DNA of 64,000 nucleotides from Alphaproteobacteria bacterium (GCA_045605805.1 JAZUQR010000008.1:43253-107252), one strand, 5' to 3'. Shown: positions 1,928-36,379, counted from the first letter of the stretch. Made by a program: numbers and translations. Notes: generated by a model not told the origin, from the sequence alone.

Positions 1928-4162
1928 ATGATTTACTTTTCACATATTACAAACCCTTTTCAGCCGAATAAGGGTCGGATAGATCGTGTCCTTGACGAAG
2001 GGAAAACGGTCTGGCAACTGGTCGAAGAACAGAAAGTTGACTTGAAACGCCCGACAATTTGTATGATCAACGGTGGTGCAGTCCTCAGAAAGTTTTGGAA
2101 CGACCTTGTTCAGCCAGATTCGCTTGTTTGCTTTATCACGCTTCCGGAAGGCGGTGGCGGCGGTAAATCCTCAAATCCAGTTCAGGTTGTTTTAATGGTC
2201 GCGGTTGTTGTTGCTTCCGTTTATACCGGTGGTGCTGTGGCGGCGGCCTATGGTGCTGTTTGGGGTGGTGTTGCGGCGGCGGCAGTTTCCATTGGCGGAA
2301 GCTTTCTTGTCAACACATTCGTTCCACCACCTAAGGCCTCTCTTAACGGGTCCGGCTCGGCCAACTCAATAGCGGCACAAAGTCCGACTTATTCCTTGCA
2401 AGCACAAGGTAATCAGGCCCGGCTTGGCAGTCCGATACCGGTTATTTATGGCCGACACCTGATTTATCCGGATTTTGCCAGTCAGCCTTATTACGGCTAT
2501 GCAAACGATGAACAATACACTTATCAAGTGCACTGCATCGGCCAAGGCTACTATGACATCGAGAAAATCCGGATTGAGGACACGCCAATCAGCTCGTTTG
2601 AAGAGATAACATATCAGATTATCAATCCGGGCGAGAAGAACACGCTCTTTCGTGATGATGTGGTAACTTCGCCGGAGGTTGCCGGACAAGAGCTTTTGAA
2701 AGGAAACACGATCGGGCCGTTTGTCTTAAACCCGACCGAAAGTGAAATTGACCGGGTGGAAATTGATGTTGCTTGTCAGCGCGGCCTTTATTACGCAAAT
2801 GACAGCGGCGGCCTGAACACAAAATCGGTTCAATGGCGCGTTGATGCCCGAAAAATTGATGATGAGGATAATCCCTTGGGTGACTGGTTCACTCTCGGGA
2901 CCGAAACATTGTCAGCCAATACGGTCAACGGTCTTTACCGGACATATGGTTATTCGGTGGCAAAAGGCAGATACGAAGTCCGGGCCACACGTTTAGATGA
3001 TAAAGATACATCTTCACGCGCTGGACATGAACTCCGTTGGGCCTCGGCAAAAGGCTTTATTGTATCAAATCCGAGTTACGGCGACGTAACCTTGCTCGCC
3101 ATTAAGATGAAAGCCACAAATAACCTGTCGCAACGTTCAAGCCGTATGGTTAACTGTATTGTGACAAGGAAGTTGCCGACCTGGTCACCGTCTGGTGGCT
3201 GGACCGGCAGAGTGCCGACACGCTCTATCGCCTGGGCAATAGCCGACATCTTAAAAGCTAACTATGGTGCAAGACTGACTGACAAGTCCATAGATCTTGA
3301 AGGTTTATACCGGCTGGATCAGATTTGGGCCGCACGGGGTGATACGTTTAATGCCGTCTTTGATTCCAAATTGACGGTTTATGATGCCTTGTCGCGAACC
3401 TGCAAAGTCGGACGTTCCGTTCCCTACATTCAAGGCGGCATTGTTCGCTTTGTCCGGGATGAGCCAAAATCAATACCGGTTGCATTGTTCGGGCCAAGAA
3501 ACATCGTCAAAAACAGCCTGACAATTCAATACATCATGCCCTCTGAAGATACAGCGGACAGCGTTTGTGTTCAGTATTTTTCGGACCGAACTTGGAAGAA
3601 CTCAGAGATAACCGGCAGTTTTGAAGGCTCCACCTCAGATAAGACGGCAACGGTTGAGCTTTTCGGTTGTACCGATAAAAACCAAGCTCTCCGGGAGGCC
3701 ATCTATATGGCGTTGGCTAACCGATATCGCCGGCGAATTGTGACATTTTCAACCGAATTGGAAGGTCTGATCCCGAGCTATGGGGATTTGATTTCCATTA
3801 CGCATGATATGCCGCATTGGGGTTCAGGTGGTGAAATCCTGTCAAAAAATGACATGACTTTAACGCTATCCGAGCCGGTTGAGTTTACCGAGGGCCAAAC
3901 TCACTATTTGGCTTTAAGAACTCGAACCGGGGAACTATCAGGACCGTACCGGGTAAAAGCCGGTTCGCTTCCGACTGAGGTTATTTTGCTAGATACTCCC
4001 GATATTCCTATCGATACCGGGACCGATGCAGAACGAACTCATTTTGCCTTTGGAACTCAAGACAAATGGGGAACATTAGCTCGTGTGACAGGGATTAAAC
4101 CACGCTCCGGCAAGGTTGAAATTACCGCCGTCATTGAGGACAACAGAGTTCACGCCAATTAA
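1928..4162 (+). CDS. Tail tip / host-specificity protein (gpI-like N-terminus plus gpJ-like domain)
   Basis: GNQARLGSPIPVIYGRH and TRSIAWAIADIL motifs; 744 aa; follows NlpC/P60. Confidence 0.85.
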   Translation: MIYFSHITNPFQPNKGRIDRVLDEGKTVWQLVEEQKVDLKRPTICMINGGAVLRKFWNDLVQPDSLVCFITLPEGGGGGKSSNPVQVVLMVAVVVASVYTGGAVAAAYGAVWGGVAAAAVSIGGSFLVNTFVPPPKASLNGSGSANSIAAQSPTYSLQAQGNQARLGSPIPVIYGRHLIYPDFASQPYYGYANDEQYTYQVHCIGQGYYDIEKIRIEDTPISSFEEITYQIINPGEKNTLFRDDVVTSPEVAGQELLKGNTIGPFVLNPTESEIDRVEIDVACQRGLYYANDSGGLNTKSVQWRVDARKIDDEDNPLGDWFTLGTETLSANTVNGLYRTYGYSVAKGRYEVRATRLDDKDTSSRAGHELRWASAKGFIVSNPSYGDVTLLAIKMKATNNLSQRSSRMVNCIVTRKLPTWSPSGGWTGRVPTRSIAWAIADILKANYGARLTDKSIDLEGLYRLDQIWAARGDTFNAVFDSKLTVYDALSRTCKVGRSVPYIQGGIVRFVRDEPKSIPVALFGPRNIVKNSLTIQYIMPSEDTADSVCVQYFSDRTWKNSEITGSFEGSTSDKTATVELFGCTDKNQALREAIYMALANRYRRRIVTFSTELEGLIPSYGDLISITHDMPHWGSGGEILSKNDMTLTLSEPVEFTEGQTHYLALRTRTGELSGPYRVKAGSLPTEVILLDTPDIPIDTGTDAERTHFAFGTQDKWGTLARVTGIKPRSGKVEITAVIEDNRVHAN

Positions 4163-5202: not shown

Positions 5203-5314
5203 TTTTTGCCTTTTATATGAACCGGTGTATGCCGATTATGAGCATGATACCCCGGAAACGGTCCGTCAAATTGATAGAAACAATGTGATTTACGATGATT
5301 TATGTACAAATTAA
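5120..5314 (+). CDS. Putative outer-membrane spanin lipoprotein (Rz1-like)
   Basis: Lipobox LSGC; overlaps the Rz-like gene in another frame. Confidence 0.6.
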   Translation: MLKQLRIVGTAWLILSALSGCTTNINGDFCLLYEPVYADYEHDTPETVRQIDRNNVIYDDLCTN

Positions 5315-5411
5315 AAGATTTTGTTTGACTTTTCTTGCAAAAATGGCTCGAATCATAAGCGGAGGTGTCATGAACCTCTGTAATCTTAATATTAAGAAAG
5401 GAAAATTAAAC

Positions 5412-5684
5412 ATGAATAAAACTGAATTTGTTGAAGCAGTTGCTAAAGAAGCTAAAGCCTCTAAAGCCGCCGCAAATGAATTGGTAAACGCTGTTGTAGC
5501 TGTTGTTACAAAAGCATTGAAAAAAGGTGAATCAGTTCAAATCACTGGTTTCGGTACATTTGAAGTAGCAAAACGCGCCGCTCGTAAAGGTCGCAATCCT
5601 GCTACCGGTAAAGAAATCAAAATCCCGGCATCAAAAGCTCCTAAGTTCAAAGCCGGCGCAGTCTTGAAAAAAGCTGTAAAATAA
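5412..5684 (+). CDS. hup: HU family DNA-binding protein
   Basis: MNKTEFVEAVA...GFGTF...RKGRNPATG...PKFKAG; AAAGGA RBS before ATG 5412. Confidence 0.95.
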   Translation: MNKTEFVEAVAKEAKASKAAANELVNAVVAVVTKALKKGESVQITGFGTFEVAKRAARKGRNPATGKEIKIPASKAPKFKAGAVLKKAVK

Positions 5685-6022: not shown

Positions 6023-6463
6023 ATGGGCAAGATATGCTCGTTTTTTGGACACAGTCATTTATATGGACAATCGGACCGTATTGCCCAACAATTAAGGCAA
6101 GTCATTATCAATTTAATCGGACAAGGTGTTGATACCTTTTACGTTGGCAATCATGGTGAGTTTGATATTTTTGCCAGCCGGGTAGCCTATGATCTGAAAA
6201 GTTTATATCCTAACATCCAAATCATTGTTGTTTTATGTTATCCAAATGAGTTGCAATACTTAAAATGTGCCTTCACGGATTTTTTGATGCCTCCGGAAAT
6301 AGAAGCGGCCCCCAAACGGGCTTGCATTGTAACTCGCAATCATTGGGTTGCTGATAATTCTGACTACATCGTCTGCTTTATCAAATACAAAATGGGTGGA
6401 GCCTATGCGGCTATCGAATACGCCCAAAAGCACCATAAACAGATTATAGAGGTGAGAGCATGA
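6023..6463 (+). CDS. SLOG-superfamily protein (DUF1273/YpsA-like)
   Basis: CSFFGH, FYVGNHGEFD, RNHWVADNSDYIVC and GGAYAAIEYA motifs. Confidence 0.75.
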   Translation: MGKICSFFGHSHLYGQSDRIAQQLRQVIINLIGQGVDTFYVGNHGEFDIFASRVAYDLKSLYPNIQIIVVLCYPNELQYLKCAFTDFLMPPEIEAAPKRACIVTRNHWVADNSDYIVCFIKYKMGGAYAAIEYAQKHHKQIIEVRA

Positions 6464-6498: not shown

Positions 6499-6527
6499 TT
6501 GACTTCGCAAGGGAAGACGGATAAAAT
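6499..6527 (+). promoter_or_regulatory. Sigma70-type promoter upstream of avd-TR-RT
   Basis: TTGACT-17 bp-TAAAAT. Confidence 0.6.
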
Positions 6528-6562: not shown

Positions 6563-7156
6563 ATGCGTAAAGATCAAGTCAGTCGTAATCAAAGAATTCA
6601 TATGCCCAGGAAGGTAGAAAACGTTTCGGGGCAATTAATGCTACCTGTGGATGTTGCTTCTGTAAAGCAAGCATTTGCAACAGCTAATGACAAACGATTT
6701 AAATATGCTGATGCGCTGGATCAAGCAACCAAAGAAGATCCGGAATTGCATCAAATTTCAACAATTCCAAGCGATTCAAGCGAATTAATTGTTATAACGA
6801 AACTTAAAAAACTGGGGGCTTATATTCTAGCCGTGACGGTTAAATCGCCGGCCAAATTTAGACCTGTTTTTATCAATCGGATGCAAAATTACAGCTTGTC
6901 GGCTTTGGAAAATTTATTGAATGCTAATTTTATTCGGATGGATAGCCCCGAACATAAAGCCCAGCGAGAAAAGCATCAAACGGATGCACTCATTCAGTTA
7001 AAAATGGTGGCATATGTTGCAATGCTGTCGGAAAATGCAAAGTGTATTTTGATGAGGCAGTATAAACAAATATCAATTCAGGTTGGTGAAATTATTAACC
7101 TGATTATGGCATGGAAAAAAAGTGATGATAAACAATGGCAAACAAAAAAGTTTTGA
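6563..7156 (+). CDS. avd: DGR accessory variability determinant (Avd-like four-helix bundle) with N-terminal extension
   Basis: ELIVITK...KSPAKFR..FINRMQN...AN...EIINLIMAWKKSD pattern; sits directly before TR and RT. Confidence 0.85.
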   Translation: MRKDQVSRNQRIHMPRKVENVSGQLMLPVDVASVKQAFATANDKRFKYADALDQATKEDPELHQISTIPSDSSELIVITKLKKLGAYILAVTVKSPAKFRPVFINRMQNYSLSALENLLNANFIRMDSPEHKAQREKHQTDALIQLKMVAYVAMLSENAKCILMRQYKQISIQVGEIINLIMAWKKSDDKQWQTKKF

Positions 7157-7195
7157 ATCCGAAAGGGTCAAAAGAGGGAAAGTTGATAATGCGTA

Positions 7196-7314
7196 TTGTG
7201 CCTCTTGGTCCGCGTCTTCAAATGAAAATGAAAACGTGCGTTGCGTCAACTATAAGGGCGATAAGAACTGGAATAACACGAATAAACGTAAAATCTCGGC
7301 GCGCCCCGATTTGC
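7196..7314 (+). repeat. DGR template repeat (TR)
   Basis: 119-nt ungapped match to 8822-8940; all 23 differences are at TR adenines; rich in AAC/AAT codons. Confidence 0.97.
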
Positions 7315-7569
7315 TTTTAAGGAGAACAACAAAATGTGGTCGGCAAAGACACAGATCTCTGAAACAAGCCAGATATGTGGATTTTAGAAAAAATCCGCCC
7401 GTGCTTAAAGCAAAGGAAACTTTCTCTTTTCTAACCGCTGTCAGCTTAATGCTCAGTGCGGTGGAAGAAGTAAAAATGCAAAGTTTGCGTTTTATGGGGT
7501 ATCACATATATTGACACGTCTTGTTTTAATATATTATCGGGTACCCCTTTTTTACAACAAAAGAGAACG

Positions 7570-8619
7570 ATGAAGATAGAAGAGATATTTACATTTGAAA
7601 ACTTGGTTGCGGCCCACAAAGCATGTCGGCTGAGTAAGCAACATAAACGAGGAACAATCATGTTTGAAATTGAATTGGGGCGTAATGTCACCAATCTGGT
7701 CAAACAATTGACGGCTAGAACATATCGTTTAAGTCCTTACAGATCCTTTACCATTTATGATCCGAAGAAAAGATTAATTGAAGCGTTACCCTACAAAGAC
7801 AGAGTGGTTTTAATGTGCTTTTGTCAGCATTCGGTAGCTCCCCGGCTAGAGAGACACCTGATTTATGACAATGCCGCTTCACGCAAAGAAAAAGGAACGC
7901 ATTTTGCGGTAGAGAGATTGCATTCATTTATGCGAAAGCTGTACATCAAAAACAAAACAAATCGGATTTATTTTTTGAAATGCGATATCAGGAAATATTT
8001 TCAAAGCATCAATCATGAGATTTTATTGGAACTGTTGGCCAAGACCGGTTTTTCGGCTGATGAGATGTGGTTTTTAAGGATGATCATTGAATCACACGGT
8101 TCCATCGGGTTGCCTTTGGGTAATCAGACCAGCCAATGGTTTGCCTTGCTTTATTTGAACGGAATGGACAGGCTGATTAAAGAACGTCTGCGTATGTCCT
8201 GTTATGTGCGCTATATGGATGATTTTGTTATCCTAAGCGAAGATAAAGCCAAATTACAGCTGTGTAGAAAGCAAATTGATGAATATGTCAAAGGATTAAA
8301 GCTGTCCTTAAATCAAAAGACACAAATCGGGCTGTTATCGGATGGTATTGATTTTTTGGGATTTAACCACAAATTATCGGCCACAGGTAAGATTATCAAA
8401 TCTTTGCGTGGATCGGCCAAAAGCCGCCAAAGAAAATACCTGAAAACCATCCGTCATTACTATTTGAATGATGTCCTGGATGATGAGTACCTAGACGTCC
8501 GTTTAGCCTCGTTTCGCGGGCATTTAAAGGGGACTAAGAACTGGATCCATATCAGCAACCGCTTGGCTTCCTTAAAACACGAGAAACGCCGTACAAAAAA
8601 AATTGTTGCAGAACAATAA
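7570..8619 (+). CDS. DGR reverse transcriptase
   Basis: IYDPKKRLI, KCDIRKYF, GLPLGNQTSQ (DGR-type SQ), YVRYMDDF and GIDFLGF motifs; no maturase or endonuclease domain. Confidence 0.95.
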   Translation: MKIEEIFTFENLVAAHKACRLSKQHKRGTIMFEIELGRNVTNLVKQLTARTYRLSPYRSFTIYDPKKRLIEALPYKDRVVLMCFCQHSVAPRLERHLIYDNAASRKEKGTHFAVERLHSFMRKLYIKNKTNRIYFLKCDIRKYFQSINHEILLELLAKTGFSADEMWFLRMIIESHGSIGLPLGNQTSQWFALLYLNGMDRLIKERLRMSCYVRYMDDFVILSEDKAKLQLCRKQIDEYVKGLKLSLNQKTQIGLLSDGIDFLGFNHKLSATGKIIKSLRGSAKSRQRKYLKTIRHYYLNDVLDDEYLDVRLASFRGHLKGTKNWIHISNRLASLKHEKRRTKKIVAEQ

Positions 8620-8634
8620 ATTGTATGATATACT
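8606..8634 (+). promoter_or_regulatory. Promoter of the DGR target operon
   Basis: TTGCAG-17 bp-TATACT with extended -10 TG; AGGAGG RBS before ATG 8664. Confidence 0.6.
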
Positions 8635-8663
8635 GGGAGTATAAGCTAAATTAGGAGGCTCAT

Positions 8664-10613
8664 ATGGACTTTACGTTTTTGAAGGAAGATCAGATATGGG
8701 GCGATGGTGCCCTAGATGTAATGAAGCGTTATGGCACGAAGGTTGCGCCAACGGATCTGACAGTCATATTGGGTGGTTATATGACTGGTGGAGGTGATCG
8801 TACTTCTGAAGATGATCTAACTTGTGCCTCTTGGTCCGCGTCTTCAGATGGACATGGAGGCGTGCGTTGCGTCCGCTGTGAGGGCGATGAGCACTGGGGT
8901 GGCACGCATGGACGTGTGATCTCGGCGCGCCCCGCTTTGCCTCCATCGGAGGCATCTAAAATCAGCCCGAGCGAAGCGAGAGCTATCGCTGGAATCCGCG
9001 TAGCGGAATATGGGGAATACCCGCAAACGGTCGCCGATGAACGCACCAGCGAGAAATTAGAAAGATTACATGATTCAAGATCTCTCCGTCCGACCGGAAA
9101 AAATTACACATTTGATTCAGTTGGTTTAACCGATTATGACACGTCTTTTAAGGCCACATCCTATCAGGAATATGAAATGGATGGCAAAAGGTATATCCGC
9201 GTTCCTGGACGGCCTGCTGACGACGATAGCAAACTATCTACTGGGGAACAGGTAGAGTCCGGAAAACCCTACTGGGTTGAGGTCCAACCGATAGAATGGC
9301 TGATGGATAGAAGCGGCACAATGGTCGCCAAAAAATGCTTATTCGCCGGTATTCAATTTGATACAAAGAGCTCATATGACGGTGACTTCTCTAAAACGTC
9401 CATGAAACACTATTTGGACACTTATTTTGCCAAAGAAATGGAGCCAACCGGACGTGTGGCCGCAAGAACGGTATCAAGAGACTATGAAGAAGAGCCGGAA
9501 AGAAAAGAACCCGTTAAAAAGAAAGAACCGACAGCCAGACAGAAGAAATACGGGATCGAGGTATCTGATGAGCCTATGCCCGTCAAGGACCAAATAAACT
9601 TCTATATTCAAAACGGAATGAGCTTCATGCTCCATGGCCCGTCCGGTGTCGGTAAATCACAACGTGTGAAAGAAATTGATCCGGATTTGACCTCAATTAC
9701 GCTGTGTAACGGAATTTTGCCTGAAGATGTTATCGGTAAAACAATCTATCCAAACGGCGTGGGAGCCGATGGGGCCTCCGGTGGTGTTTGGGTGCCGCCT
9801 AAGTGGTACACGGATTTGTGCAGAAAATGCGAAACAGAACCGGACAAACAGCACGTCTTATTTATCGATGAAGTGACCAATGCGCGTGAAACAACACAAA
9901 GTTTGATCTATCACGTAGCGTTGGAAAAATCAATTGCCCAGGGCGTTGGCAAACTGCCTAATAATGCTGTGGTCGTATTGGCCGGTAACAGCAAGGAAGA
10001 ATCAGGAGCCGCTTATAACATGCCGGCCCCGTTGTTCAGACGTTTAAGCCATATTTACTTGGACTTGAATATTCAGGATTGGTTGGAATGGGGCTCGGAA
10101 CACAGCAAGAGCCATCCGGAAGATCCGGATCGCTTAAACATCCATCCATTAGTCGCCAGTTTTGTGGCAACCTACGGACGGCAAGTGTTCTATTCCGAGT
10201 ATGATGAAGAAAACCCCGGCAAGTTTGCACTTGACCCACGAAAATGGGAAAAAGTATCAGATAAAATCTACGCTAATAAGGGTATGATGCGCCGTGAGAT
10301 TTTGGAAGCTGATATCGGGCCTGAGTTGGCGGCCAGTTTGTTGTCTTATGCTAAAAATCCGCCGCTATCCCTGGAAGAAGTGATTGAGGGCGAATATACC
10401 CGCGAGGATATTCCTACGGGACAGGATGCCCGTTTGGCGTTGGCGTTGAGTTTGCGTCATGCAACACCGAAACAAGTCGGGAAAGTACGTCAATTTGTTG
10501 AAACACAGTTAGGCGCAGAAAATCGTGCGATTTTTGACTCTGTTTGGGTGGGCAAGGATGATACACGCGCCATGCAGATTGCCACTTTACATAACTTAAA
10601 GGGAGGAAGATAA
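8664..10613 (+). CDS. DGR target: N-terminal variable lectin-like (DUF6273-like) domain fused to a MoxR/AAA_5 ATPase
   Basis: VR at residues 54-92; YGEYPQT and PIEWL motifs; Walker A GPSGVGKS, Walker B VLFIDE, LAGN, PLFRRL. Confidence 0.9.
   Translation: MDFTFLKEDQIWGDGALDVMKRYGTKVAPTDLTVILGGYMTGGGDRTSEDDLTCASWSASSDGHGGVRCVRCEGDEHWGGTHGRVISARPALPPSEASKISPSEARAIAGIRVAEYGEYPQTVADERTSEKLERLHDSRSLRPTGKNYTFDSVGLTDYDTSFKATSYQEYEMDGKRYIRVPGRPADDDSKLSTGEQVESGKPYWVEVQPIEWLMDRSGTMVAKKCLFAGIQFDTKSSYDGDFSKTSMKHYLDTYFAKEMEPTGRVAARTVSRDYEEEPERKEPVKKKEPTARQKKYGIEVSDEPMPVKDQINFYIQNGMSFMLHGPSGVGKSQRVKEIDPDLTSITLCNGILPEDVIGKTIYPNGVGADGASGGVWVPPKWYTDLCRKCETEPDKQHVLFIDEVTNARETTQSLIYHVALEKSIAQGVGKLPNNAVVVLAGNSKEESGAAYNMPAPLFRRLSHIYLDLNIQDWLEWGSEHSKSHPEDPDRLNIHPLVASFVATYGRQVFYSEYDEENPGKFALDPRKWEKVSDKIYANKGMMRREILEADIGPELAASLLSYAKNPPLSLEEVIEGEYTREDIPTGQDARLALALSLRHATPKQVGKVRQFVETQLGAENRAIFDSVWVGKDDTRAMQIATLHNLKGGR
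8822..8940 (+). repeat. DGR variable repeat (VR)
   Basis: Copy of the TR with 17 A>G, 5 A>C and 1 A>T changes altering 16 codons. Confidence 0.97.
8938..8954 (+). promoter_or_regulatory. Hairpin/cruciform at the VR 3' end (DGR target-recognition element)
   Basis: TGCCTCC-ATC-GGAGGCA perfect 7-bp stem after GC-rich TCGGCGCGCCCCG; absent after the TR. Confidence 0.7.
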
Positions 10614-10614
10614 A

Positions 10615-11079
10615 ATGTCATTAAAAGAAATACTCGAAAAAAGTCGGAAAAAACGCAAGAATGGCTTAGTCATTGGGCCTGATATAGGATGGCTTGGTCC
10701 GAAACCCGCCCGAACAAAAGCCGAAAAGATTAATCAAATCAAAACGGAATTTATTGATGATAGAGCTTTGTTGATTGTCGGAGCTAAAGCATCCGATTTT
10801 GCAGAATATCCGAAGATAGAGGCTGATATCTCAGTTCAACGTTTGATTCAATATATGGATACGTTTGAAAAAACGGAAGATCATAAAGGTTTCTTGGTCA
10901 TTGATGGGTTAGACAATATACCTGAATCTGAACAGGAAAAGTTTGTCCCCTTGTTAAAAGATCGGCAGATTTTATCCAGTAAGCTGCCAAATGAAGTTCA
11001 AATTTTGGTTCCTGTGAAAAAAATTGAAGACATTTCAAAAAGGATAAAATCTCTGATATTTCCTCTGAAGGTGGTATAA
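10615..11079 (+). CDS. Degenerate stand-alone AAA-like protein
   Basis: WLGPKPARTK (broken P-loop), FLVIDGLD (Walker B-like) and KLPNEVQILV parallel motifs of the upstream ATPase. Confidence 0.6.
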   Translation: MSLKEILEKSRKKRKNGLVIGPDIGWLGPKPARTKAEKINQIKTEFIDDRALLIVGAKASDFAEYPKIEADISVQRLIQYMDTFEKTEDHKGFLVIDGLDNIPESEQEKFVPLLKDRQILSSKLPNEVQILVPVKKIEDISKRIKSLIFPLKVV

Positions 11080-12926
11080 TGATCAAAGATGTTTTAAAAC
11101 AACAAGAAGAAATTCAATATATCAAGGAACAGGTTTTAGCCAAGTTTCCCTTACTTGGTGTGACGATGATGCCTTTGTCGGTTGTTCCTGATGATAGAAT
11201 TGGGACAGCGGCCACGGATGGACATAAAATTATCTATTCTCCAAAGTTTTTTAACACCTTATCGGACGAACAAAAACAATTTGTCTTTGCGCATGAAGTG
11301 ATGCATGTCGCTTTTAACCATATTTTGCGCAGTAAGGGTCGTAATCAAAGATTGTGGAATATCGCAACCGATTCTGTTATCAACCAAATCTTGAAAAATG
11401 AAAAATTGCCATTAGCGGAAGGTGGCGTTGATATTGCAGAAGCTGTCAATCATTCGGCCGAGGAAATGTACGAAAAACTTTTGAAAAAGAAAGAACAGCG
11501 CGATCAGGAAAAACAGCAAAATCAAGAGCAAGATCAACAGCAACAACAATCACAATCCGGTGGGACGGACCAGCCTCAGGATCAGGATGCACAAAATCAG
11601 CCTGAACAGGAACAACCTCAGGATCAAGACGGACAAAATCAATCCGGACAAGACCAGCCTCAGGATCAAGACGGGCAAAAGGGACAAGAACAATCCGATC
11701 AACAATCAGACGGTTCAGAAAATCAAGATGAACAAAACAAAAATTCATCAGAAGGCTCGGAAGGATCCGAACAACAGAAAGATCAATCTCAAGATGGTGA
11801 TTCAAACTCTGAACAAAACAGTTCTTCCGGTCAGGGAGACGAAAATCAATCTGATTCAAATTCCGAACAATCAAGCGACAATCAACAAGGATCCTCTAAA
11901 CCTCAAAAAGGTGGTCAACGTTCGCAATCCGGTTCTTCCTCTCAATCAGAAGACACCGACTGGGATGACAGCAATATCGATTGGGACAATGAAGATGAAC
12001 AAGTAGGCCACGATACACATGATATTTGGAAAGAAGCAGTTGAGCAAGCAGAACGTGAAGAACAACGAAAACAGGAAGCATCCAAAAAGAAAAGTTTATG
12101 GGATAAACTAAAAGAGAACATGGGGCAAAAAGAAGTTAAAGAGGATCAGCAAGGCGAACCTCAAGAAAAAGAAGCTCCTGTACCGCAAGATGAAAACATG
12201 GATGCGTATGAAAAAGGCTTCTTGGCAGAAAATCAAGAAAAACGTCATGAGATGGCCGAACAGGTGCGCGAACAATTAAACAGGATAAAAGGAAGCCTCC
12301 GTCAATCAAATGATCATACCACAGTCGGGGATGTTGGGGAAACTCAAACGCCGGTGGTTGATTGGAAAAAAATGCTTAAAAAATCTTTTGATGAAGAGCG
12401 TGATCGTTGGTCCTATCGTCGTTCCGGTTCTGAAAACGACTATATGGCTCGGGTAGAAGAATTGGAAGATGAAGGCCGTCCGGATACTGAGGTTATGTTG
12501 GATGTCAGCGGTTCTGTAAATATCCGCTTGTTACGTGAATTTTTAAGACAACTTAAACCGTTACTTAAATCCTCTAAATTAAAGGTCGGTTGCTTTGATG
12601 AGTTTGTTTATGATTTTAAAGAAATAAAGACAAAAGAAGATATTGATCATTTTCAAATTACGGCAACATCTCAATGGACTGAAAACTGGGATGCGGCTGT
12701 CCGGGCATTTTCTAAGAAAAAAGAAGTGAATAAAATTATTTTTACAGACGGATATCCATGCCCAGGAACAATGCCTAAAGAAGATTTAAAGGGTAAGAAT
12801 GTTATTTGGATAGTTTATGGAAATAAAGATTTTAATCCATGCTGTGGTAAAGTCATCCAGGTTTCTGAACGACAACTTCAGTCGTATATTCAGACGGCCG
12901 CTCCACTTTCTAGAGGTGGAAGATAA
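11079..12926 (+). CDS. DUF2201-like protein: HEXXH metallopeptidase domain, Q/D/S-rich linker, vWA domain
   Basis: TAATDG, AHEVMHVAFNH, WNIATD.VIN; MIDAS DVSGS and FTDG; TAATG overlap with the upstream gene. Confidence 0.85.
   Translation: MIKDVLKQQEEIQYIKEQVLAKFPLLGVTMMPLSVVPDDRIGTAATDGHKIIYSPKFFNTLSDEQKQFVFAHEVMHVAFNHILRSKGRNQRLWNIATDSVINQILKNEKLPLAEGGVDIAEAVNHSAEEMYEKLLKKKEQRDQEKQQNQEQDQQQQQSQSGGTDQPQDQDAQNQPEQEQPQDQDGQNQSGQDQPQDQDGQKGQEQSDQQSDGSENQDEQNKNSSEGSEGSEQQKDQSQDGDSNSEQNSSSGQGDENQSDSNSEQSSDNQQGSSKPQKGGQRSQSGSSSQSEDTDWDDSNIDWDNEDEQVGHDTHDIWKEAVEQAEREEQRKQEASKKKSLWDKLKENMGQKEVKEDQQGEPQEKEAPVPQDENMDAYEKGFLAENQEKRHEMAEQVREQLNRIKGSLRQSNDHTTVGDVGETQTPVVDWKKMLKKSFDEERDRWSYRRSGSENDYMARVEELEDEGRPDTEVMLDVSGSVNIRLLREFLRQLKPLLKSSKLKVGCFDEFVYDFKEIKTKEDIDHFQITATSQWTENWDAAVRAFSKKKEVNKIIFTDGYPCPGTMPKEDLKGKNVIWIVYGNKDFNPCCGKVIQVSERQLQSYIQTAAPLSRGGR
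11568..11693 (+). repeat. Three imperfect 42-bp tandem repeats in the linker
   Basis: DQPQDQDAQNQPEQ / EQPQDQDGQNQSGQ / DQPQDQDGQKGQEQ. Confidence 0.75.
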
Positions 12927-12968: not shown

Positions 12969-15551
12969 TTAATATAAATTAGCCTCAAAAATTTGATAAA
13001 GGTCAAATTCTATACCGTCAACGCCTCTGATGAGGTCTATTTCATCTTCGGCGGCGACATCAATTCGGGCCTGATCTAAAAACAAGCCTTCTTCTTTTCG
13101 TTTAAGCTCTTTTTCAGCGACATTCAGCTGTTTTTGAATTCTTAATTCCGTGAGCCGGTCTGAAGCGGAGGATATTGTCTCACGAATTTTTTTAACCTCT
13201 TGCCTTGCTTCTGAAATGTTTTGCTCTAGGACAGATTTTTGGCGGCTGGCTTTTATTTTAATTAAATCAACATCCGTATCAAACTTTTTGGTATAATCAT
13301 TTACATAACGTTCCTTAAGGTCGCGCTGGATGCGTGTATCTAACAAATCTCGCGATGAACCGCCAGTCGTTTTTAGCCAATACGGATTCCTCTTTTCTTC
13401 AGCTATAAATTCACTAACCGGTTGATTGATAATTTTTTGGCATTCCTCATCAGTCATGAGCCGTCCATCAGGTGTCGTACCAACCAAAATGTCATACTCT
13501 GATAAATACTGCCGGCGGCGATTACGTAAGACGATGTTATAGAACTTTATATTGCATTTTTCTGTTGGCTCAACGGTTTTAATGTCCGCTTTGTCAGAGC
13601 ATGATATTTCTTGTAAAATACCACGAACAAGCACGGATGTTAAAGTGATGCGCCCTGCGACCGGCTTAAAATCTTTACTCATTCCATAAGTCCTGCGACC
13701 GGTGTATGGCACATTTCTTGTGCCGGTGTAATAGTAAAACATGTGCGGCAATTCTTCATCGTCCGGTAAAGTCAGCGTTTGATTGAAGTCATCGATCACA
13801 TATTCCGGATGCTTTGTCGCAAAATAAAACTTCACAACTTCCCATAAATCTTTATTCAAGAACTCCGCTTGTTCCTCTATGTATTTCGGCGAAACGGACA
13901 CTTTCTCGGCAATATCTTTGGTAAAAGTGGTAAAGAGAGAACTTTCAGCCGCTGAAACAATGCGCTCATTCGGTTCGCGGTTTACTTCCAAGTTTGTTTC
14001 CATATCTGCGCGTATATCACTAAGCGTGCGGCGTTTTTGCAAAACATCTTCCAGTTTAACATCAAAATTACCGACAATATCGTCCGACATACCAAAAATG
14101 CCTTCAAATTGCAGGGTACGCTTGTTTATCAGCTCCAAAATACGGACATCCGAGATATTTTCTTTGCTTAAAAGATTGATAACTAAAACATCGGATTGCT
14201 GGCCTTGTCGGTGGCAACGACAGATACGCTGTTCCATTTCCACGGCGTTATAAAGTAAATCATAGTTAACCACAACTGGACAATATTCAATATCCAAGCC
14301 TTTGGCCATAGCATCACTACAAATTAAAATTTGCAAATCTTTTTCTGCCCGAAAACGTGGCAGAGCATCATTTTCTGTATGCTTGATGACATTATATCCG
14401 GCGGTTTTAAGCAAATTTGCCAAAACTGGCACGGTGGCAAGATTATCCACGAACACAATCGCTTTTTGTGTTTCTTTACGCAATTTTAAGTGTGCAAATG
14501 TCGTTTTAATAGCTTTTAGAAATTCTTCCATTTTGGCGGTTTGCGTAATTTTTGCCGCCATATCGCGCATTGATTCCAAAATAACACGTTCATCGCCTTG
14601 TGTTCGCTCAATAGGTGCTTCCAACATTGTGGCAAATGCTTGTGGTGATGAGGCCAAAATGTGGTAAAACATCAAAGTCAGTTGATAATTATCCATTTGC
14701 GGATAAGCCTGCTTTTCAGCTAAATTTAAGTATTTTTCGGTTAAATCATAAATTTTCTTTTCATCATCTTTTGGTACGTAGTTCAAAACAATCGGTAAGC
14801 GACGTGTAAAGTTTACATACTGGCTCGCTTGGCTTTTAAGGGTACGAAAAGCGAATTGTGATACCCAATTTGATAGTTCTGGATAGTTTTCGGGCTTTCT
14901 GAAATACCGGCGATAAAAACTGTCAGGATCCGGCAGAACGCTTTCATCAATAAAATGTATCAATCCGTAAATATCCATGATACTCATTGTGATCGGCGTT
15001 GGCGTTAAAAGCAGTTTGAAAGCATCGCCGACAGCACCCTTAATGGTTGCAACTGATTTATTGTCCGGCTTAAAAAGAAAATCAGCCTCATCAAACACGG
15101 CCAAATCCCAACGAATGCTTTTGACTTTTTCTGCCTCACGGATAACATCATCGTATGTGACAAGGCAAATACCTTTACTATCGGCAGTATATTCGGCCCA
15201 TTTGATAACCGGCAAGGTGAACTCTTCATCAAGTTTTTGTTGCCATTGTGCCATAAGGTTTTGGGGTAAAACAACCAATATATGTTCTTTTCCCTCGTAC
15301 CAACGTTGAACTACTACAAGCAAAGCCTCATAAGTTTTACCGAGTGAGCCTTCATCACATAAAATGCAACCTTTAATCAACCTAGATCGCAGGGCAAAAC
15401 GGGCCGCGGCTATTTGATAAGGTAATACTTTAATTTTTGAAGAAGCATAAACCGCCAGTAAATTATCGTCATCGCGAAAACTGGCCAATCGTCTGGCTTC
15501 CACCATAGCGGCAAATTCGGATACAAAACGATACGGCTTAGTCTCTTCCAT
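12969..15551 (-). CDS. SNF2-family helicase-like protein with degenerate motifs
   Basis: LPYQ, CDEGSLGKT, FDEAD, LLTPTP, VVNYDL and EQRICRCHRQGQ motifs. Confidence 0.8.
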   Translation of the reverse strand: MEETKPYRFVSEFAAMVEARRLASFRDDDNLLAVYASSKIKVLPYQIAAARFALRSRLIKGCILCDEGSLGKTYEALLVVVQRWYEGKEHILVVLPQNLMAQWQQKLDEEFTLPVIKWAEYTADSKGICLVTYDDVIREAEKVKSIRWDLAVFDEADFLFKPDNKSVATIKGAVGDAFKLLLTPTPITMSIMDIYGLIHFIDESVLPDPDSFYRRYFRKPENYPELSNWVSQFAFRTLKSQASQYVNFTRRLPIVLNYVPKDDEKKIYDLTEKYLNLAEKQAYPQMDNYQLTLMFYHILASSPQAFATMLEAPIERTQGDERVILESMRDMAAKITQTAKMEEFLKAIKTTFAHLKLRKETQKAIVFVDNLATVPVLANLLKTAGYNVIKHTENDALPRFRAEKDLQILICSDAMAKGLDIEYCPVVVNYDLLYNAVEMEQRICRCHRQGQQSDVLVINLLSKENISDVRILELINKRTLQFEGIFGMSDDIVGNFDVKLEDVLQKRRTLSDIRADMETNLEVNREPNERIVSAAESSLFTTFTKDIAEKVSVSPKYIEEQAEFLNKDLWEVVKFYFATKHPEYVIDDFNQTLTLPDDEELPHMFYYYTGTRNVPYTGRRTYGMSKDFKPVAGRITLTSVLVRGILQEISCSDKADIKTVEPTEKCNIKFYNIVLRNRRRQYLSEYDILVGTTPDGRLMTDEECQKIINQPVSEFIAEEKRNPYWLKTTGGSSRDLLDTRIQRDLKERYVNDYTKKFDTDVDLIKIKASRQKSVLEQNISEARQEVKKIRETISSASDRLTELRIQKQLNVAEKELKRKEEGLFLDQARIDVAAEDEIDLIRGVDGIEFDLYQIFEANLY

Positions 15552-15554
15552 AAT

Positions 15555-18500
15555 TTACACCGTTTTCTTAAATTCCTGCCAATTTCTGACCGGCTGTTCG
15601 GAGTAGATAACATTATCAAGAGCTTTGAAGTGCTGTGCGCCGCAATGAATCTTTTGTTGTTCTTCCGGTCGCAGGCCATAGAACGAATCAGTTCCTTTGG
15701 TTTCAAGCACGAAATAAAGTTTCTGTTCGCCATTTTTCTCTAAATATACGGCCCAGTCCGGATTATAGGTTCCAATAGGTGTATCAATCTTAAACCGGCT
15801 TGGAATTTTAAAGAACATTTTAACGTCAGGATCCTCATCCAAAGCCACGGCAAACGGCTTTTCAACCGTGCTACTGTCATAAATAACATAGTCATAAACG
15901 CTGTTTTTAACCGCGACAGCATTACGATCGAGGTTAGCAATCAATTCTTCACTCGAGAAAATCTCTTGCACGGCATATTCTTCGCCGGCCAATTTAATAT
16001 ACTTAATTCCATCAATGGCCAATGCATGGCGATTGCGCTGGATGATCTCCAAAACCTTTTCGTAAAAGTCTTGTGGGTTCTTCAAAAAGTCTCCGGCCCG
16101 GCTGCTTTCTTGAATGATTTTATTCACGGTCGAACGTTTCAGCAATGTTTTGGTAGAGATTAAACGCAAAATATCCGGCAGAACATCATAGCTCTTTTCC
16201 AGGTTTTGGGTAAACATCGCACCGGCTTGGGCGGTTACGCCTGACTTTTGAATATCAACCGAGGCTGTCTGACTGAGTAAACGGGCCGAAGCAATCTCCG
16301 GCATCTTACGAATATCCTTGATACTGTCGGCGATCAGTTTATCTAAATCAAACTGGACCCGATAAGTGGTCTTTTGCTTAATTTTATTCCACAACTCCAT
16401 AAATTCCGGTGATAATAGCGCACGTTTATTGAGTTTTACCGTTACATCCTTGGAAGCATCGCGGATGTTGAGCTTATTATCAGCCTTGTTCATGGACTGC
16501 AAAATTGCACGTTGCGCGGCTTTTGACCAACGCTCACTTAAATTGAGTGTACCGGCCGCAAGCTGTGCCTTCATGGTGTCTTTAATCTTGTTCTTGCTGT
16601 CAATAACCTTTTTATCTTTCAGCTCATCCATAATCGCGGCCGCTTCCTCATACGAGAAGGTCTTTTTCTCAACAACAGTTTCTTTATATGTTGTATTAGC
16701 AAGCGCGGCAACCGACACCGGCTTTGAAGTTTTGATCATATCTTGAACATGTGTTTTTACAGGTTCAGGCATGGGGATATTTTCGATTTTAATTTCTTCC
16801 GGCTTAACTTCCGGTTTAATGTAGCCACCATCATCAATTAAGCCATATTTTTGTAAATCTTCAACAATAGCGGTGGCCTCGCTTTCGCTGACTCTACGTT
16901 CAACTTCTACTTCTTCATCGTAAGAATAGCCGACAAGCATATCCAACTCGAAAACGCCAAATTTAACACCGGTTTCATCTTCAATTTCTTTCTGTAATTT
17001 ATCGGCAAACTCGGCAAAACTTTCGTTGGCGATAACGTGCAAAACATTGATGTTCTTATCCTCAATCCGTTCTCCGTCCTGATTAACGCAAAGTCTTAAG
17101 CCACGACCGATTTTTTGACGGCAGGTAAACAGCGATTTTTGCTCGATCAGCGTGCAAACTTGGAAGACATTCGGATTATCCCAACCTTCTTTTAAGGCAG
17201 AGTGCGAGAAAATAAAGCGGAGCGGACATTCAAACGACAACAGCCACTCTTTATCTTTCATGATGGTATTGTAGGTGTCGTCATCAGCCTGCGTATCGCC
17301 TTTGGTATCCTTATATTTACCTTTTTTATCTTGGGAGAAGTAACCGTTGTGTGCTTTGTTTACGTCTGTATCGAACTTGGTTTTTAGCTCAGCGTAACGT
17401 GGTTTATTGATCAGTTCGTTATAGCATTCTTCGAACATTTTGGCATAAATACCTTTGCCGCCATCCTCAGTGCGGTATTTTTTAACCTCATCAATAAAGA
17501 ACAGGGACAACACCTTAATTCCCATATCAAAATAGCGTAATTCCTTATCTAAATGGGTTTTAATGGTCTGATAAATTTGCGCACGTTTCAAAACTTTTTC
17601 ATCAACGCTACCGATGGCTTTACCCAGGGCAACATATTCCGAGTTTGCAAATTCCACACCCTCAAGGCCTGATGTACAATCAATCCCTGAAACAACATAG
17701 CCTTCATAAATTTTGCGATGGCCGGATTTGATAAACAGATCATCGTCCGGTTTAACCGTTATAACTTTACGCGTAATATGAGCGTTGTCGTCTTCCACAT
17801 CAATTTCCAGTTTGGCCGAAAAGCCGTTGGCGTTTGAAACGTTCTTTAAGGCGATATAGGGTTTGTTTGAATCATTGATAACTGAATTTGAAATAACGCA
17901 AATCTGTTTTACTAATCCCAGTTGATACGCATCAACTGGTGTTAAACGATAGACAAGATTCTGCTTTTCGCGGTGGGTAGCGGAATAACGCAACACGCAC
18001 AGCGGATTAAGCATCGCGATGGCTTCCTTTGCCTTTGGCGTATTATCAACACTTTGCGGTTCGTCAATAATCACAACCGGATTTGTGTCCTGAATATAGC
18101 GCATAGCGGTTTCGCCGTTCAGTTTATCTTGCTCTTGATTGATAATGTTTTCGGCCTTTTTGAAAGCATCGATGTTGATGATCATGATTTCAATGTTGCT
18201 GGAAGTTGCAAAGGCTCGCACATCAGAGAGCTTGGCCGAATTATAAATAAAGTAGCGGTACGGCACACCGTCATATTGATTTTTGAAATACTCTTCCGTA
18301 ACCTGAAACGACTTGTTTACACCTTCGCGAATTGCTACACTCGGTACAACAATGATGAACTTTGTAAAACCGTAGCGGTGGTTAAGCTCCAAAATTGTTT
18401 TTGTATAAACGAAAGTTTTGCCGGTTCCGGTTTCCATTTCAATTGAAAGCGGCACCGCCTTTATGCCGTCAATGTTGGTTTGCGGCAGAGAATGAGCCTT

Positions 18501-18713
18501 TTGGATTGCATGAAGATTGTTGTTTATTGTCTCTTCATCCAACAGCAACTTGTTACCGAACCCAAATTCATTTTGCAGGAAAGAAGCCTGCGCGGAGTTA
18601 TCGGCGATTGAAAAAGTCATGTTGGCTTTTTCTTGGCCCTTGAATAACTCAACCGCCGCATTCGTGGCATCAGTTTGAAATTCTTGATTCTTAAACTTTA
18701 GTTTCATGCTCAT
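15555..18713 (-). CDS. res: Type III restriction endonuclease Res subunit
   Basis: IEMETGTGKT, IIDEPQ, RYSATH, SHSALKEGWDNPNVF and YNPDW...LETKG nuclease motifs. Confidence 0.93.
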   Translation of the reverse strand: MSMKLKFKNQEFQTDATNAAVELFKGQEKANMTFSIADNSAQASFLQNEFGFGNKLLLDEETINNNLHAIQKAHSLPQTNIDGIKAVPLSIEMETGTGKTFVYTKTILELNHRYGFTKFIIVVPSVAIREGVNKSFQVTEEYFKNQYDGVPYRYFIYNSAKLSDVRAFATSSNIEIMIINIDAFKKAENIINQEQDKLNGETAMRYIQDTNPVVIIDEPQSVDNTPKAKEAIAMLNPLCVLRYSATHREKQNLVYRLTPVDAYQLGLVKQICVISNSVINDSNKPYIALKNVSNANGFSAKLEIDVEDDNAHITRKVITVKPDDDLFIKSGHRKIYEGYVVSGIDCTSGLEGVEFANSEYVALGKAIGSVDEKVLKRAQIYQTIKTHLDKELRYFDMGIKVLSLFFIDEVKKYRTEDGGKGIYAKMFEECYNELINKPRYAELKTKFDTDVNKAHNGYFSQDKKGKYKDTKGDTQADDDTYNTIMKDKEWLLSFECPLRFIFSHSALKEGWDNPNVFQVCTLIEQKSLFTCRQKIGRGLRLCVNQDGERIEDKNINVLHVIANESFAEFADKLQKEIEDETGVKFGVFELDMLVGYSYDEEVEVERRVSESEATAIVEDLQKYGLIDDGGYIKPEVKPEEIKIENIPMPEPVKTHVQDMIKTSKPVSVAALANTTYKETVVEKKTFSYEEAAAIMDELKDKKVIDSKNKIKDTMKAQLAAGTLNLSERWSKAAQRAILQSMNKADNKLNIRDASKDVTVKLNKRALLSPEFMELWNKIKQKTTYRVQFDLDKLIADSIKDIRKMPEIASARLLSQTASVDIQKSGVTAQAGAMFTQNLEKSYDVLPDILRLISTKTLLKRSTVNKIIQESSRAGDFLKNPQDFYEKVLEIIQRNRHALAIDGIKYIKLAGEEYAVQEIFSSEELIANLDRNAVAVKNSVYDYVIYDSSTVEKPFAVALDEDPDVKMFFKIPSRFKIDTPIGTYNPDWAVYLEKNGEQKLYFVLETKGTDSFYGLRPEEQQKIHCGAQHFKALDNVIYSEQPVRNWQEFKKTV

Positions 18714-19405
18714 TTACCTATTTTATAAATTACATATTTAATTTCAGGATTCGAAAACTGCTCCTTAAAGAAAGATTCCATTTTCTTGTCATTATTCACA
18801 ACTTCTTTAGGCAATTGATTAAAATTTAATATTGTTTTATCCATCATGCCTACATCATTTATCAGAATACGATGACGCTTGTCTTCGTTCTTATTCCAGT
18901 AGAGGATCGCATACCTTATGGAGCCGGAAATAACCTCATTATCAAACGTAACGCTGTGCGTTGTAATGGTTTCCAACTTTTTCTTTTTTTTGATTTTACC
19001 AGTAAACGGGATAAAAATCGTCTTTTCGGGAGTTTGAACTCTAAAATATATGTCTTTATGCATAGGGATTTCAGGCTCATAGGAGTATCTTTTCCCCATA
19101 ATGTTATATGCATGAAAAGGTTCCAACAAAAATGGCTCATCAAAAGTTTTTAGTGTCATTAGGTATTTATTGTTGAATACGACAGAGATGGCCGTAATCG
19201 TTTTCGGAGAGAGCGTTTTATTGAATATCGTGCAATGTAAACCACTCCCTTCAAAAGAATTATGATTTTCTCCGAAAGATGTGATTTTAAGATTTTTTGA
19301 AAAGTGGTAAAGCCAAAAGCCATAAGCAGTTAAAACAAATATCCCCAAATTACCAAGGATGGATGCTACTTTCTCAACAGTTTCCAAATTCAAAAAATCA
19401 CACAT
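18710..19405 (-). CDS. Hypothetical protein with N-terminal TM helix, between mod and res
   Basis: 231 aa AT-rich ORF; hydrophobic segment near residues 13-34; stop overlaps res start. Confidence 0.7.
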   Translation of the reverse strand: MCDFLNLETVEKVASILGNLGIFVLTAYGFWLYHFSKNLKITSFGENHNSFEGSGLHCTIFNKTLSPKTITAISVVFNNKYLMTLKTFDEPFLLEPFHAYNIMGKRYSYEPEIPMHKDIYFRVQTPEKTIFIPFTGKIKKKKKLETITTHSVTFDNEVISGSIRYAILYWNKNEDKRHRILINDVGMMDKTILNFNQLPKEVVNNDKKMESFFKEQFSNPEIKYVIYKIGK

Positions 19406-19414
19406 CGTCCACCT

Positions 19415-22002: not shown

Positions 22003-22079
22003 TGGTCGGAGCGGCGGGATTTGAACCCACGACCACTTGCCCCCCAGACAAGTGCGCTACCAGGCTGCGCTACGCTCCG
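22003..22079 (-). tRNA. tRNA-Pro(GGG)
   Basis: Reverse complement CGGAGCGTAGCGCAGCCTGGTAGCGC...CT GGG GG...GGTTCAAATCC...CCA. Confidence 0.97.
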
Positions 22080-23588: not shown

Positions 23589-24644
<1,056 letters not shown>

Positions 24645-24666
24645 TTTAACGCCAAAGAGGTGCCGT

Positions 24667-25518: not shown

Positions 25519-25522
25519 GGCG

Positions 25523-31532: not shown

Positions 31533-31544
31533 GGGGAGGGTTGA

Positions 31545-32912: not shown

Positions 32913-32915
32913 GGA

Positions 32916-36317: not shown

Positions 36318-36379
36318 TTTTTTGCGAATAAACGGATATAATATACCCATTCAAACGCAATCAACGGAAAGGATCACCC

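Follow-up and report, generated by a model that had tools for sequence, protein, structure and literature searches.

The locus reported here is a diversity-generating retroelement (DGR) cassette at positions 6563–12926 of a 64,000 nt stretch of alphaproteobacterial DNA (the window, meaning the whole stretch that was analysed), and it can be set beside several described systems. DGR-linked MoxR-vWA-VMAP ternary conflict systems contain a MoxR ATPase, a vWA protein, a peptidase and a DGR-varied domain of the C-type lectin fold (PMC7159879; PMC10907252). In jumbo phages, a MoxR ATPase is paired with a metallopeptidase-vWA protein, and a role in virion assembly has been proposed for the pair (Iyer et al. 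2021, PMC7824862). Tentaclins and other gut-phage DGR targets carry DUF6273; models of this domain resemble C-type lectins, and known DGR variable repeats (VRs) map to its C-terminus (PMC10743442; PMC11792537; bioRxiv 10.1101/2024.10.15.618418). A lectin-type VR joined to a P-loop or AAA NTPase has already been reported for CPR (candidate phyla radiation) bacteria, and NTPase-VR targets with a CLec or unclassified VR, in these and other hosts, include categories b7, b10, g1 and UVR4/Midasin (Wu et al. 2018, PMC5758913).

The cassette consists of six close-packed features on the plus strand: avd, a template repeat (TR), a reverse transcriptase (RT) gene, and open reading frames (ORFs) of 649, 154 and 615 aa. 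The 649 aa protein is the DGR target, and joins a hypervariable, lectin-like N-terminal domain to a MoxR-like AAA+ ATPase, while the 615 aa protein carries a metallopeptidase and a vWA domain. There is little doubt about this anatomy. The account as a whole, in which an active DGR acts on a lectin-ATPase-peptidase module that would serve in biological conflicts, stands in our judgement evenly balanced between right and wrong.

As in the VMAP systems, one cluster holds a MoxR-type ATPase, a vWA domain, a peptidase and a DGR-varied domain of predicted lectin fold, and the cytoplasmic sensing of invaders predicted for those systems can be likened to what is proposed for this cassette. The components are arranged differently. 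In the portions of the two VMAP papers covered here, the variable domain (FGS or CLec) forms the C-terminal part of the vWA protein or of some other component, whereas here a putative DUF6273-type domain occupies the N-terminus of the ATPase. VMAP, their third component, usually has a trypsin- or caspase-like peptidase, while the third gene of the present cassette encodes a 154 aa protein of no known family; VMAP is taken to be absent from the lack of any family match to this gene. A metallopeptidase on the vWA protein is rare in VMAP systems, but here the vWA protein has an intact HExxH peptidase. The hosts also differ, being multicellular cyanobacteria, Chromatiales and actinobacteria in the one case, and gut bacteria with genomes of about 1–2 Mb in the other.

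The tentaclins and other gut-phage DUF6273 targets share with this locus a DGR target of (here probable) DUF6273 type, a VR that is N-terminal (in tentaclins) and the use of at least two targets per DGR. In these targets, as described in the sections covered of the papers cited above, DUF6273 is followed by Ig-like domains or stands alone, and they are presumed receptor-binding proteins of virions. Here, the order within the domain is read as permuted with respect to the Pfam model, and an ATPase is fused to it; Pfam and PHROG scans detected no Ig-like domain in the target.

The CPR targets are alike in having an NTPase and a VR in one DGR target, and in their small-genome hosts. Their NTPase motif comes before a VR at the C-terminus, in contrast to the N-terminal VR found here, an arrangement recorded in 3 of 372 DGRs, and the text examined describes no peptidase-vWA partner of the kind represented here by the DUF2201 protein (Wu et al. 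2018, PMC5758913). The fusion of variable domain and ATPase noted from the sequence alone has precedents: an NTPase-VR fusion is known in CPR bacteria, while the N-terminal, apparently permuted position of the VR, the MoxR-type ATPase and the set of partners differ. Fusions of CLec VRs to NTPases in CPR bacteria were reportedly also described by Paul et al. in 2017. No N-terminal DUF6273-type VR on a MoxR-like ATPase together with DUF2201 was found in the parts of the literature searched, although such targets may be listed in the supplements to Roux 2021, Wu 2018, Paul 2017 and Dore 2024. A scan of viral contigs with the target alignment gave 62 pattern matches, none of which was confirmed, a result that is not evidence of absence.

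Template and variable repeats

A repeat finder identified a direct repeat of 119 nt with 81% identity between its copies. One copy is the TR (7196–7314, plus strand, 36 adenines), and the other (VR1, 8822–8940, plus strand) is a VR within the target gene. When the copies were aligned and mismatches counted, all 23 of the 23 differences fell at TR adenines, for which the random expectation is roughly 0.3^23. Because every mismatch sits at a TR adenine, the pair carries the template/variable signature of a DGR. Homology between the copies stops in a GC-rich stretch (TCTCGGCGCGCCCCG), and beyond it CTTTGCC is common to the variable copies while the template has ATTTGCT. No hairpin was found in a search downstream of the VR.

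The RT (7570–8619, plus strand, 349 aa) matches RVT_1 (9.6e-20) and phrog_1423 (2.5e-93), and its translation contains YMDD and GNQTSQ, which we take to be marks of DGR RTs. The avd gene (6563–7156, plus strand) encodes a protein of 197 aa with an N-terminal extension that matches phrog_3206 'Avd protein of DGR' (6.7e-11); its matches to Pfam bAvd (1.1e-05, 26.3 vs 40 bits) and NCBIfam Avd (5.4e-05, 23.4 vs 80 bits) are under the curated cut-offs. A TTGACT-17-TAAAAT site is present upstream of avd at 6499–6527, and a scan of promoters and terminators gave no useful excess over shuffled sequence. In the whole genome there is a single RT, a single Avd and no TR but this one. The sequence-only reading, which had described avd, TR, RT and VR as intact, was confirmed, all of these parts lying where it placed them, with avd supported by PHROGs.

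Natural variation and broken reading frames

Among 39 homologues of the target (79–100% identity), the VR is the most variable part. Mean column entropy is 1.58 bits over VR residues 53–93, compared with 0.73 bits for residues 1–52, 0.66 bits for residues 94–270 and 0.16 bits for the ATPase part (residues 301–649). Within the VR, codons with a TR adenine climb to about 3 bits and show 11–15 residue types each, while entropy is zero at codons without adenine, for example C54, S60, G74 and A88–P90.

The VR also differs between samples, as seen from contigs of four runs of four studies that were aligned to the window. One contig of run X1 spans the VR and shows substitutions and indels at 8846–8914, with none listed at the TR (7196–7314). 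In run X2, a 199 nt contig joins the 5′ flank of the VR to a different VR version, and in run X5 three overlapping contigs cross 8721–8846. In X2, X5 and X7, large contigs break off at 8776–8877 and start again at or beyond 8919, and summed depth is lower in the bin 8827–8913; since the data are contigs, this uncovered stretch was not counted as evidence. VR polymorphism, proposed as a check when only the sequence had been read, was thus looked for in contigs, and other VR versions are present in X1, X2 and X5. Because variation is almost confined to A-bearing TR codons, and because other VRs occur in other samples, the DGR is active, as judged by natural variation. A-biased TR/VR pairs are found at the same position of the gene in eleven further species-level loci. 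Pairs called by script in loci L051, L056 and L065 were dropped, as they look like chance or low-complexity repeats.

With 21 variable codons, the TR has the capacity for about 10^19 versions of the protein. Four of these codons specify lysine (AAG twice, AAA twice), which is unusual, and can mutate to stops, a property that the sequence-only reading had missed. In seven of the 15 RT-bearing loci (L004, L010, L012, L015, L018, L026 and L036) the assembled VR frame is broken by stops or frameshifts, mostly at the TR lysine positions. The broken frames could be real off-states or the chimeric consensus of mixed populations. They, and the lysine codons that give rise to stops, would also suit a largely selfish or decaying element, in which the DGR hitchhikes and its mutagenesis often destroys the target. 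Such an element is highly improbable in view of the strong conservation of the VR codons without adenine and of the whole ATPase, the many intact full-length homologues and the invariant catalytic motifs; moreover, where VR alleles are mixed, the consensus of a metagenome-assembled genome can be a chimera. A stop in the VR frame is present in the TR as well in L010 and L012.

Target protein

The target gene (8664–10613, plus strand) was defined by its translation, PHROG matches and homologues. Its predicted N-terminal ligand-binding domain (aa 1–270, 8664–9473, plus strand; the N-domain) was delimited from an alignment of relatives and their DUF6273 matches, and the VR lies near its start, at residues 53–93 of 649, a position to which the sequence-only reading gave no emphasis. 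The aligned N-terminal regions (n = 37, from both phyla in which the module occurs) form one conserved domain. The first part of this domain contains the VR and has the pattern FL..PTDxA..GA..W.xS..V..G..RP, and the second part has the pattern GEYPQ..TGK.Y..EYE.GK.Y.RV..YW..V.PI.W...YLN.

DUF6273 (PF19789) is matched by three of the 37 aligned members, the best at 6.5e-06 (26.6 bits, above cut-off). This best match, in L045, pairs aa 14–109 with profile positions 78–171, while residues 5–96 of L038 match positions 55–149, and residues 274–293 of L060 match positions 28–47. In proteins with tandem domains, the Pfam model straddles two neighbouring N-domain units. The simplest reading of these matches is that the N-domain is a circular permutant, that is, DUF6273 with its halves swapped, and it would follow that the VR lies at the C-terminal end of DUF6273. 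The varied domain had been called lectin-like and fused to an ATPase from the sequence alone, and both parts of that description find support, the first by way of remote DUF6273 matches of relatives.

N-domains with their parts in this order are widespread, with 8880 cluster representatives at E ≤0.001 and 1144 at 1e-30. Many of the clustered proteins are free-standing and 270–400 aa long, and a few are giant proteins with multiple copies.

The second half of the target, a cytoplasmic protein, contains the MoxR-like AAA+ ATPase module (aa 307–601, 9582–10466, plus strand), which matches phrog_1297 'ATPase' (1.8e-37). The Walker A sequence is GPSGVGKS, and in 28 homologues (49–96% identity) residues G328, G330 and K331 of Walker A, D402 and E403 of Walker B, N442 and R460 are invariant; in our reading, N442 is sensor-1 and R460 the arginine finger. 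Some homologues have precomputed matches to PF07728 or PF07726, and their source names include 'MoxR-like ATPase'. The label 'MoxR-like' is used because of the phrog_1297 match, these source names, the motifs and the vWA partner. A sequence search of the PDB with the target profile gave no match at 0.01.

Partner proteins

The DUF2201 protein (11079–12926, plus strand, 615 aa) has matches above cut-off to DUF2201_N (PF13203; 2.6e-29, 103.1 bits) and the vWA-like DUF2201 domain (PF09967; 5.3e-07, 30.2 bits), and matches phrog_1314 at 1e-49. It is laid out as an N-terminal HExxH metallopeptidase, a Q/S/D/E-rich linker and a C-terminal vWA domain with a metal-ion-dependent adhesion site (MIDAS). 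The peptidase motif HEVMH (residue 72) and the MIDAS motif DVSGS (residue 475) are conserved in 43 of 43 homologues, which agrees with the peptidase-vWA partner first suspected from the sequence. The linker contains three tandem 42 nt repeats (11567–11692), and the homologues range from 413 to 896 aa.

The 154 aa partner (10615–11079, plus strand) starts 1 nt past the target stop, and its own stop overlaps the start of the DUF2201 gene. The ATPase gene is co-transcribed and translationally coupled with the genes for the 154 aa and DUF2201 proteins. No match to the small protein was found in Pfam, NCBIfam or PHROG family scans, and its profile retrieved only the AIM2 PYD from the PDB, at E 0.3. 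By hhalign, its residues 80–138 (FLVIDGLD...KLPNEVQILVPV) align with the region of the target from Walker B to sensor-1 at a probability of 2.8% (E 0.016), and it lacks a Walker A. It had been read from sequence as a degenerate AAA protein tightly coupled to the target; the coupling stands, while the AAA identity is suggestive at most, a reasonable guess rather than a finding.

Further VRs served by the same TR

The genome has three VRs for its one TR, the extra two, missed in the sequence-only reading, being on contigs C7 and C1. In the C7 VR (C7:99–217), 15 of 15 mismatches are at TR adenines, and in the C1 VR (C1:8–126, minus strand) the count is 18 of 19. The C7 gene encodes an N-domain and a short basic tail, has no ATPase, and has genes of housekeeping appearance after it; over its first 98 nt, C7 is identical to the prophage copy. 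Both copies touch contig ends, the repeat being where C7 begins and where C1 stops, and they may represent one or two extra genes, or an assembly join. Free-standing N-domain genes of congeners that lack the DGR share 44–60% identity with the C7 gene and lie in other neighbourhoods.

These VRs bear on the question of whether fusion to the ATPase is incidental, the DGR's real targets being free-standing N-domain binders and the fused copy one more VR paralogue. Besides the ATPase-less C7 gene among its housekeeping genes and the second VR on C1, the common occurrence of free-standing N-domain genes in the order and in the wider library points that way. An incidental fusion is nevertheless very unlikely: in every one of the 15 RT-bearing loci, the gene immediately downstream of the DGR is the ATPase-fused target, members of two phyla keep the fusion whether a DGR is present or not, and each of the RT-bearing genomes of the order (4 of 80) has a full-length ATPase target.

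Prophage setting

The window corresponds to positions 43253–107252 of contig C8, in a genome of 1.21 Mb (completeness 98.85%, GC 40.7%). An exact 20 nt repeat is shared by the 3′ end of a tRNA-Pro (ggg) gene (22003–22079, minus strand; repeat at 22003–22022) and C8:15392–15411, and a large serine recombinase gene is present at C8:16477–18186. Because of the repeat pair and the recombinase, the region is read as a 49.9 kb prophage integrated in tRNA-Pro, the repeats being its likely attL and attR. Upstream of the window, C8 encodes TerL, portal, head protease, major head protein, minor tail protein and tape measure. The final structural gene ahead of the cargo region encodes a lambda J-like central tail fibre protein (1928–4162, plus strand; phrog_469 tail protein 5.1e-159, phrog_31 4.4e-128). 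In its early region, the prophage encodes an S-adenosylmethionine-synthetase-like protein (C8:20485–21531) and a ParB-like/DNA methyltransferase fusion (C8:21860–23083).

The cargo between the J-like gene and attR comprises an HU-like gene, a marginal SLOG gene, the DGR cassette, an SNF2 helicase gene and a type III restriction-modification (R-M) system. GC content is 45–48% across most of C8 20–50 kb, against roughly 40% for several of the cargo genes. The HU-like DNA-binding protein gene (5295–5684, plus strand; PF00216 4.5e-32) is upstream of the cassette, and its cluster has members only in the closest relatives (L001, L002, L004, L005) and the window. The SLOG/YpsA-like gene (6023–6463, plus strand; PF06908 6e-06) was found by clustering of neighbouring ORFs only in four near relatives and the window. 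The SNF2 helicase gene (12969–15551, minus strand; SNF2-rel_dom 2.8e-23), convergent with the cassette and inside the prophage, is DrmD-like (PADLOC DrmD 1.3e-76). The type III R-M genes (15555–21280, minus strand; REase_III 9.8e-297, MTase_III 1.6e-193, plus Pfam matches) comprise Res (15555–18713, minus strand) and Mod (19415–21280, minus strand); between them is an ORF of 231 aa (18710–19405, minus strand) with no Pfam or PADLOC match. The cassette is cargo of a siphovirus-like prophage, as had been proposed from the sequence, with the J-like tail gene on one side and attR of the tRNA-Pro element on the other. Of the neighbours named in the sequence-only reading, the type III R-M system was confirmed by its Res and Mod genes, while the SLOG assignment, at 26.8 bits against a cut-off of 27.7, is only marginal.

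Beyond the prophage, positions 23592–38092 hold a run of large plus-strand genes, mostly without an annotated function, among them genes for a helicase-like protein of 1133 aa (phrog_16, phrog_34613) and a protein of 570 aa (phrog_35619). This block could be another accessory island.

Position in a prophage raises the possibility that the cassette is a device for virion morphogenesis or host range, with the ATPase as assembly chaperone, the peptidase as processing protease and the variable domain as a receptor-binding or fibre-loading part. It starts about 2.4 kb past the J-like tail gene, the usual place of phage DGR targets, and DUF6273 domains are DGR targets in tentaclins, the presumed receptor-binding proteins of gut phages. 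The jumbo-phage pair follows the same two-protein logic, and its families phrog_1297 and phrog_1314 are those matched by the window proteins; many lytic phages, including rV5-like, PA5oct-like and N4-like phages and phage G, encode relatives of the two enzymes. However, the phage ATPases share less than 30% identity with the target in the matches listed, and 0 of 406 records cover at least 80% of the query, so that the fused form, with its N-terminal lectin-like domain, is found in no isolated phage. Neither a DGR nor a 154 aa partner was seen in the two phage regions examined. The DUF2201-like gene of PA5oct is the one next to a 'putative homing endonuclease'. That endonuclease, considered as a DUF2201 partner, and small ORFs considered as counterparts of the 154 aa protein were rejected, since BLASTP and hhalign showed no relation.

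Inspection of the target translation by eye revealed no signal peptide and no fibre-like domain, which also argues against a virion component, as do the surroundings of sister cassettes. DGR cassettes are flanked by NrdD and NrdG in L016 and by a resolvase and a GNAT acetyltransferase in L010. Among 148 neighbouring ORFs of 16 loci, no phage structural family is included in the top 25 matched families; the PHROG tally gave glycosyltransferases, radical-SAM enzymes, acetyltransferases, invertases and integrases. Only the trio of ATPase, small protein and DUF2201 protein, together with the DGR genes, are conserved as neighbours. Because DGR-bearing copies also occur in such chromosomal, non-phage settings, the cassette is not intrinsically a phage device. 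A role in virion assembly or host range is the main rival to a role in conflicts, and, weakened by these settings, is quite unlikely.

Distribution of the module and recruitment of the DGR

A scan that kept one genome per species gave 74 loci, from Alphaproteobacteria and Clostridia of the guts of animals and humans. DUF2201 is present in 47 of them, the 154 aa small partner in 42 (always with DUF2201), RT in 15 and Avd in 13; the RT count is a lower bound, as one further genome has an RT on another contig end. Where at least 3 kb was available on both sides (44 loci), DUF2201 is present in 33 and RT in 11. Together, the genes for the ATPase, the small protein and DUF2201 make up a three-gene unit that is self-contained and portable. 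The homologous operons thus mostly lack a DGR, which the sequence-only reading had regarded as a point against itself if combined with a housekeeping role, and no such role was shown. In the clostridial locus L047 (5483–7474 and 7521–9659), and in L046 and L048, there are two adjacent paralogous N-domain-ATPase genes; more DUF6273 genes are nearby, and DUF2201 and the small partner are upstream rather than downstream.

When a quick tree was built from the ATPase part, all 16 DGR-bearing rows (the window, L019 and 14 of the RT-bearing loci, L026 being too short for inclusion) fell within an alphaproteobacterial clade of 36, and a DGR is found in none of the 29 Bacillota rows. The DGR-bearing rows are scattered within the clade, requiring six changes by parsimony, two of them forced by well-supported branches. 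The module recruited the DGR in one alphaproteobacterial branch. RT copies 95% identical to that of the window occur in two other genera, and therefore point to recent transfer.

Among 80 genomes of the host order, 29 have a match to the target profile; many of these matches are free-standing N-domain genes only, and full-length ATPase-type matches are found in a minority of the 29. This pattern has to be set against a role in cellular physiology, in which a MoxR-vWA chaperone would mature or turn over a host protein, or an envelope or glycan intermediate, and the DGR would tune ligand binding. Known MoxR-vWA pairs mostly mature enzymes, examples being RavA-ViaA, CbbQ-CbbO and NorQ-NorD. Glycosyltransferases, acetyltransferases and radical-SAM enzymes are among the neighbours of the module, and the N-domain family is very large, its members occurring alone or with other domains. 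A physiological role is unlikely, however, given the patchy presence in one order, the varied neighbourhoods, carriage by a prophage together with R-M genes, the movement of near-identical cassettes between genera and the often broken frame. Being patchy, mobile, found in varied neighbourhoods and often broken in frame, the cassette has the traits of an accessory rather than a housekeeping function.

Possible function

A role in conflicts is the most likely use, argued by analogy, and could be either defence or counter-defence. The argument is that the module has the patchy distribution of a transferable accessory, keeps company with R-M genes, would meet a need for open-ended recognition, and has published precedents. 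Lectin domains varied by DGRs in MoxR-vWA conflict systems are one (PMC7159879; PMC10907252), and another, put forward in print as speculation, is that VR proteins in the cytosol might hand targets over to ATP-dependent proteases.

In a possible mechanism, the variable domain would crown the AAA+ ring and act as a selector of ligand or substrate. ATP hydrolysis would either remodel the ligand for cleavage or switch the peptidase on. The vWA domain, through its MIDAS, may link the peptidase with the ring of the ATPase or with the bound ligand, by analogy with other MoxR-vWA pairs. Used in conflicts between mobile elements and cells, such a machine could recognise fast-changing foreign proteins. 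The beneficiary may be the lysogen, through superinfection exclusion or defence, or the phage, through counter-defence. The extra free-standing variable domains produced from the same TR might be soluble binders or competitors.

A number of observations weigh against this account. The N-domain of the window has no Pfam match, even at E 10, so that the lectin and permutation assignments depend on relatives. Pfam scores of the ATPase are below cut-off for AAA_5 (16.6 vs 22 bits) and AAA_3 (17.3 vs 27 bits), and likewise for AAA_16; the MoxR/AAA_5 call made from the sequence therefore survives as regards the ATPase, through phrog_1297 and the invariant motifs, but is weaker than was stated at the time. 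PADLOC 2.0 gave no defence-model match for the target or the DUF2201 protein, and for the 154 aa protein only a weak match to Avs1b (5.5e-04). Gene order and the example of other MoxR-vWA pairs are all that point to contact among the three proteins. With seven of 15 target frames broken, the target may often be off, or dispensable. The same TR serves free-standing domains, and diversification is not tied to the ATPase. Lastly, distant relatives are found in lytic phages (406 records for the ATPase and 266 for the peptidase), and the published proposal for the jumbo-phage pair is virion assembly.

A bolder version of the conflict role is that of an antibody-like targeting system, programmed by the DGR, for an ATP-driven protease. 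The DGR would furnish the AAA+ ring with about 10^19 forms of a lectin-like tip, and from the one template would also produce free variable binders at other places in the genome. The ring and the vWA-metallopeptidase would capture and destroy a foreign protein bound by the tip, or would be triggered by it, and the portable cassette would be traded by phages and reduced-genome gut bacteria as anticipatory immunity or counter-immunity. This version is doubtful as it stands.

DGR targets with an evident enzymatic output are rare, most being surface binders whose ligands are unknown. Here, a hypervariable domain is joined to an ATPase with intact motifs, beside an intact metallopeptidase, in a compact cassette of six parts (avd, TR, RT, target, small partner and peptidase-vWA protein) that could be transferred to a laboratory host. 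The existence of the module with and without a DGR, the use of one template for several targets and the off-switch provided by stop codons make this family a natural experiment on the recruitment of DGRs. If the tip does pick the substrate, the cassette would represent anticipatory immunity or counter-immunity at the protein level in unicellular bacteria and their phages, and would be a ready scaffold for evolving targeted proteolysis.

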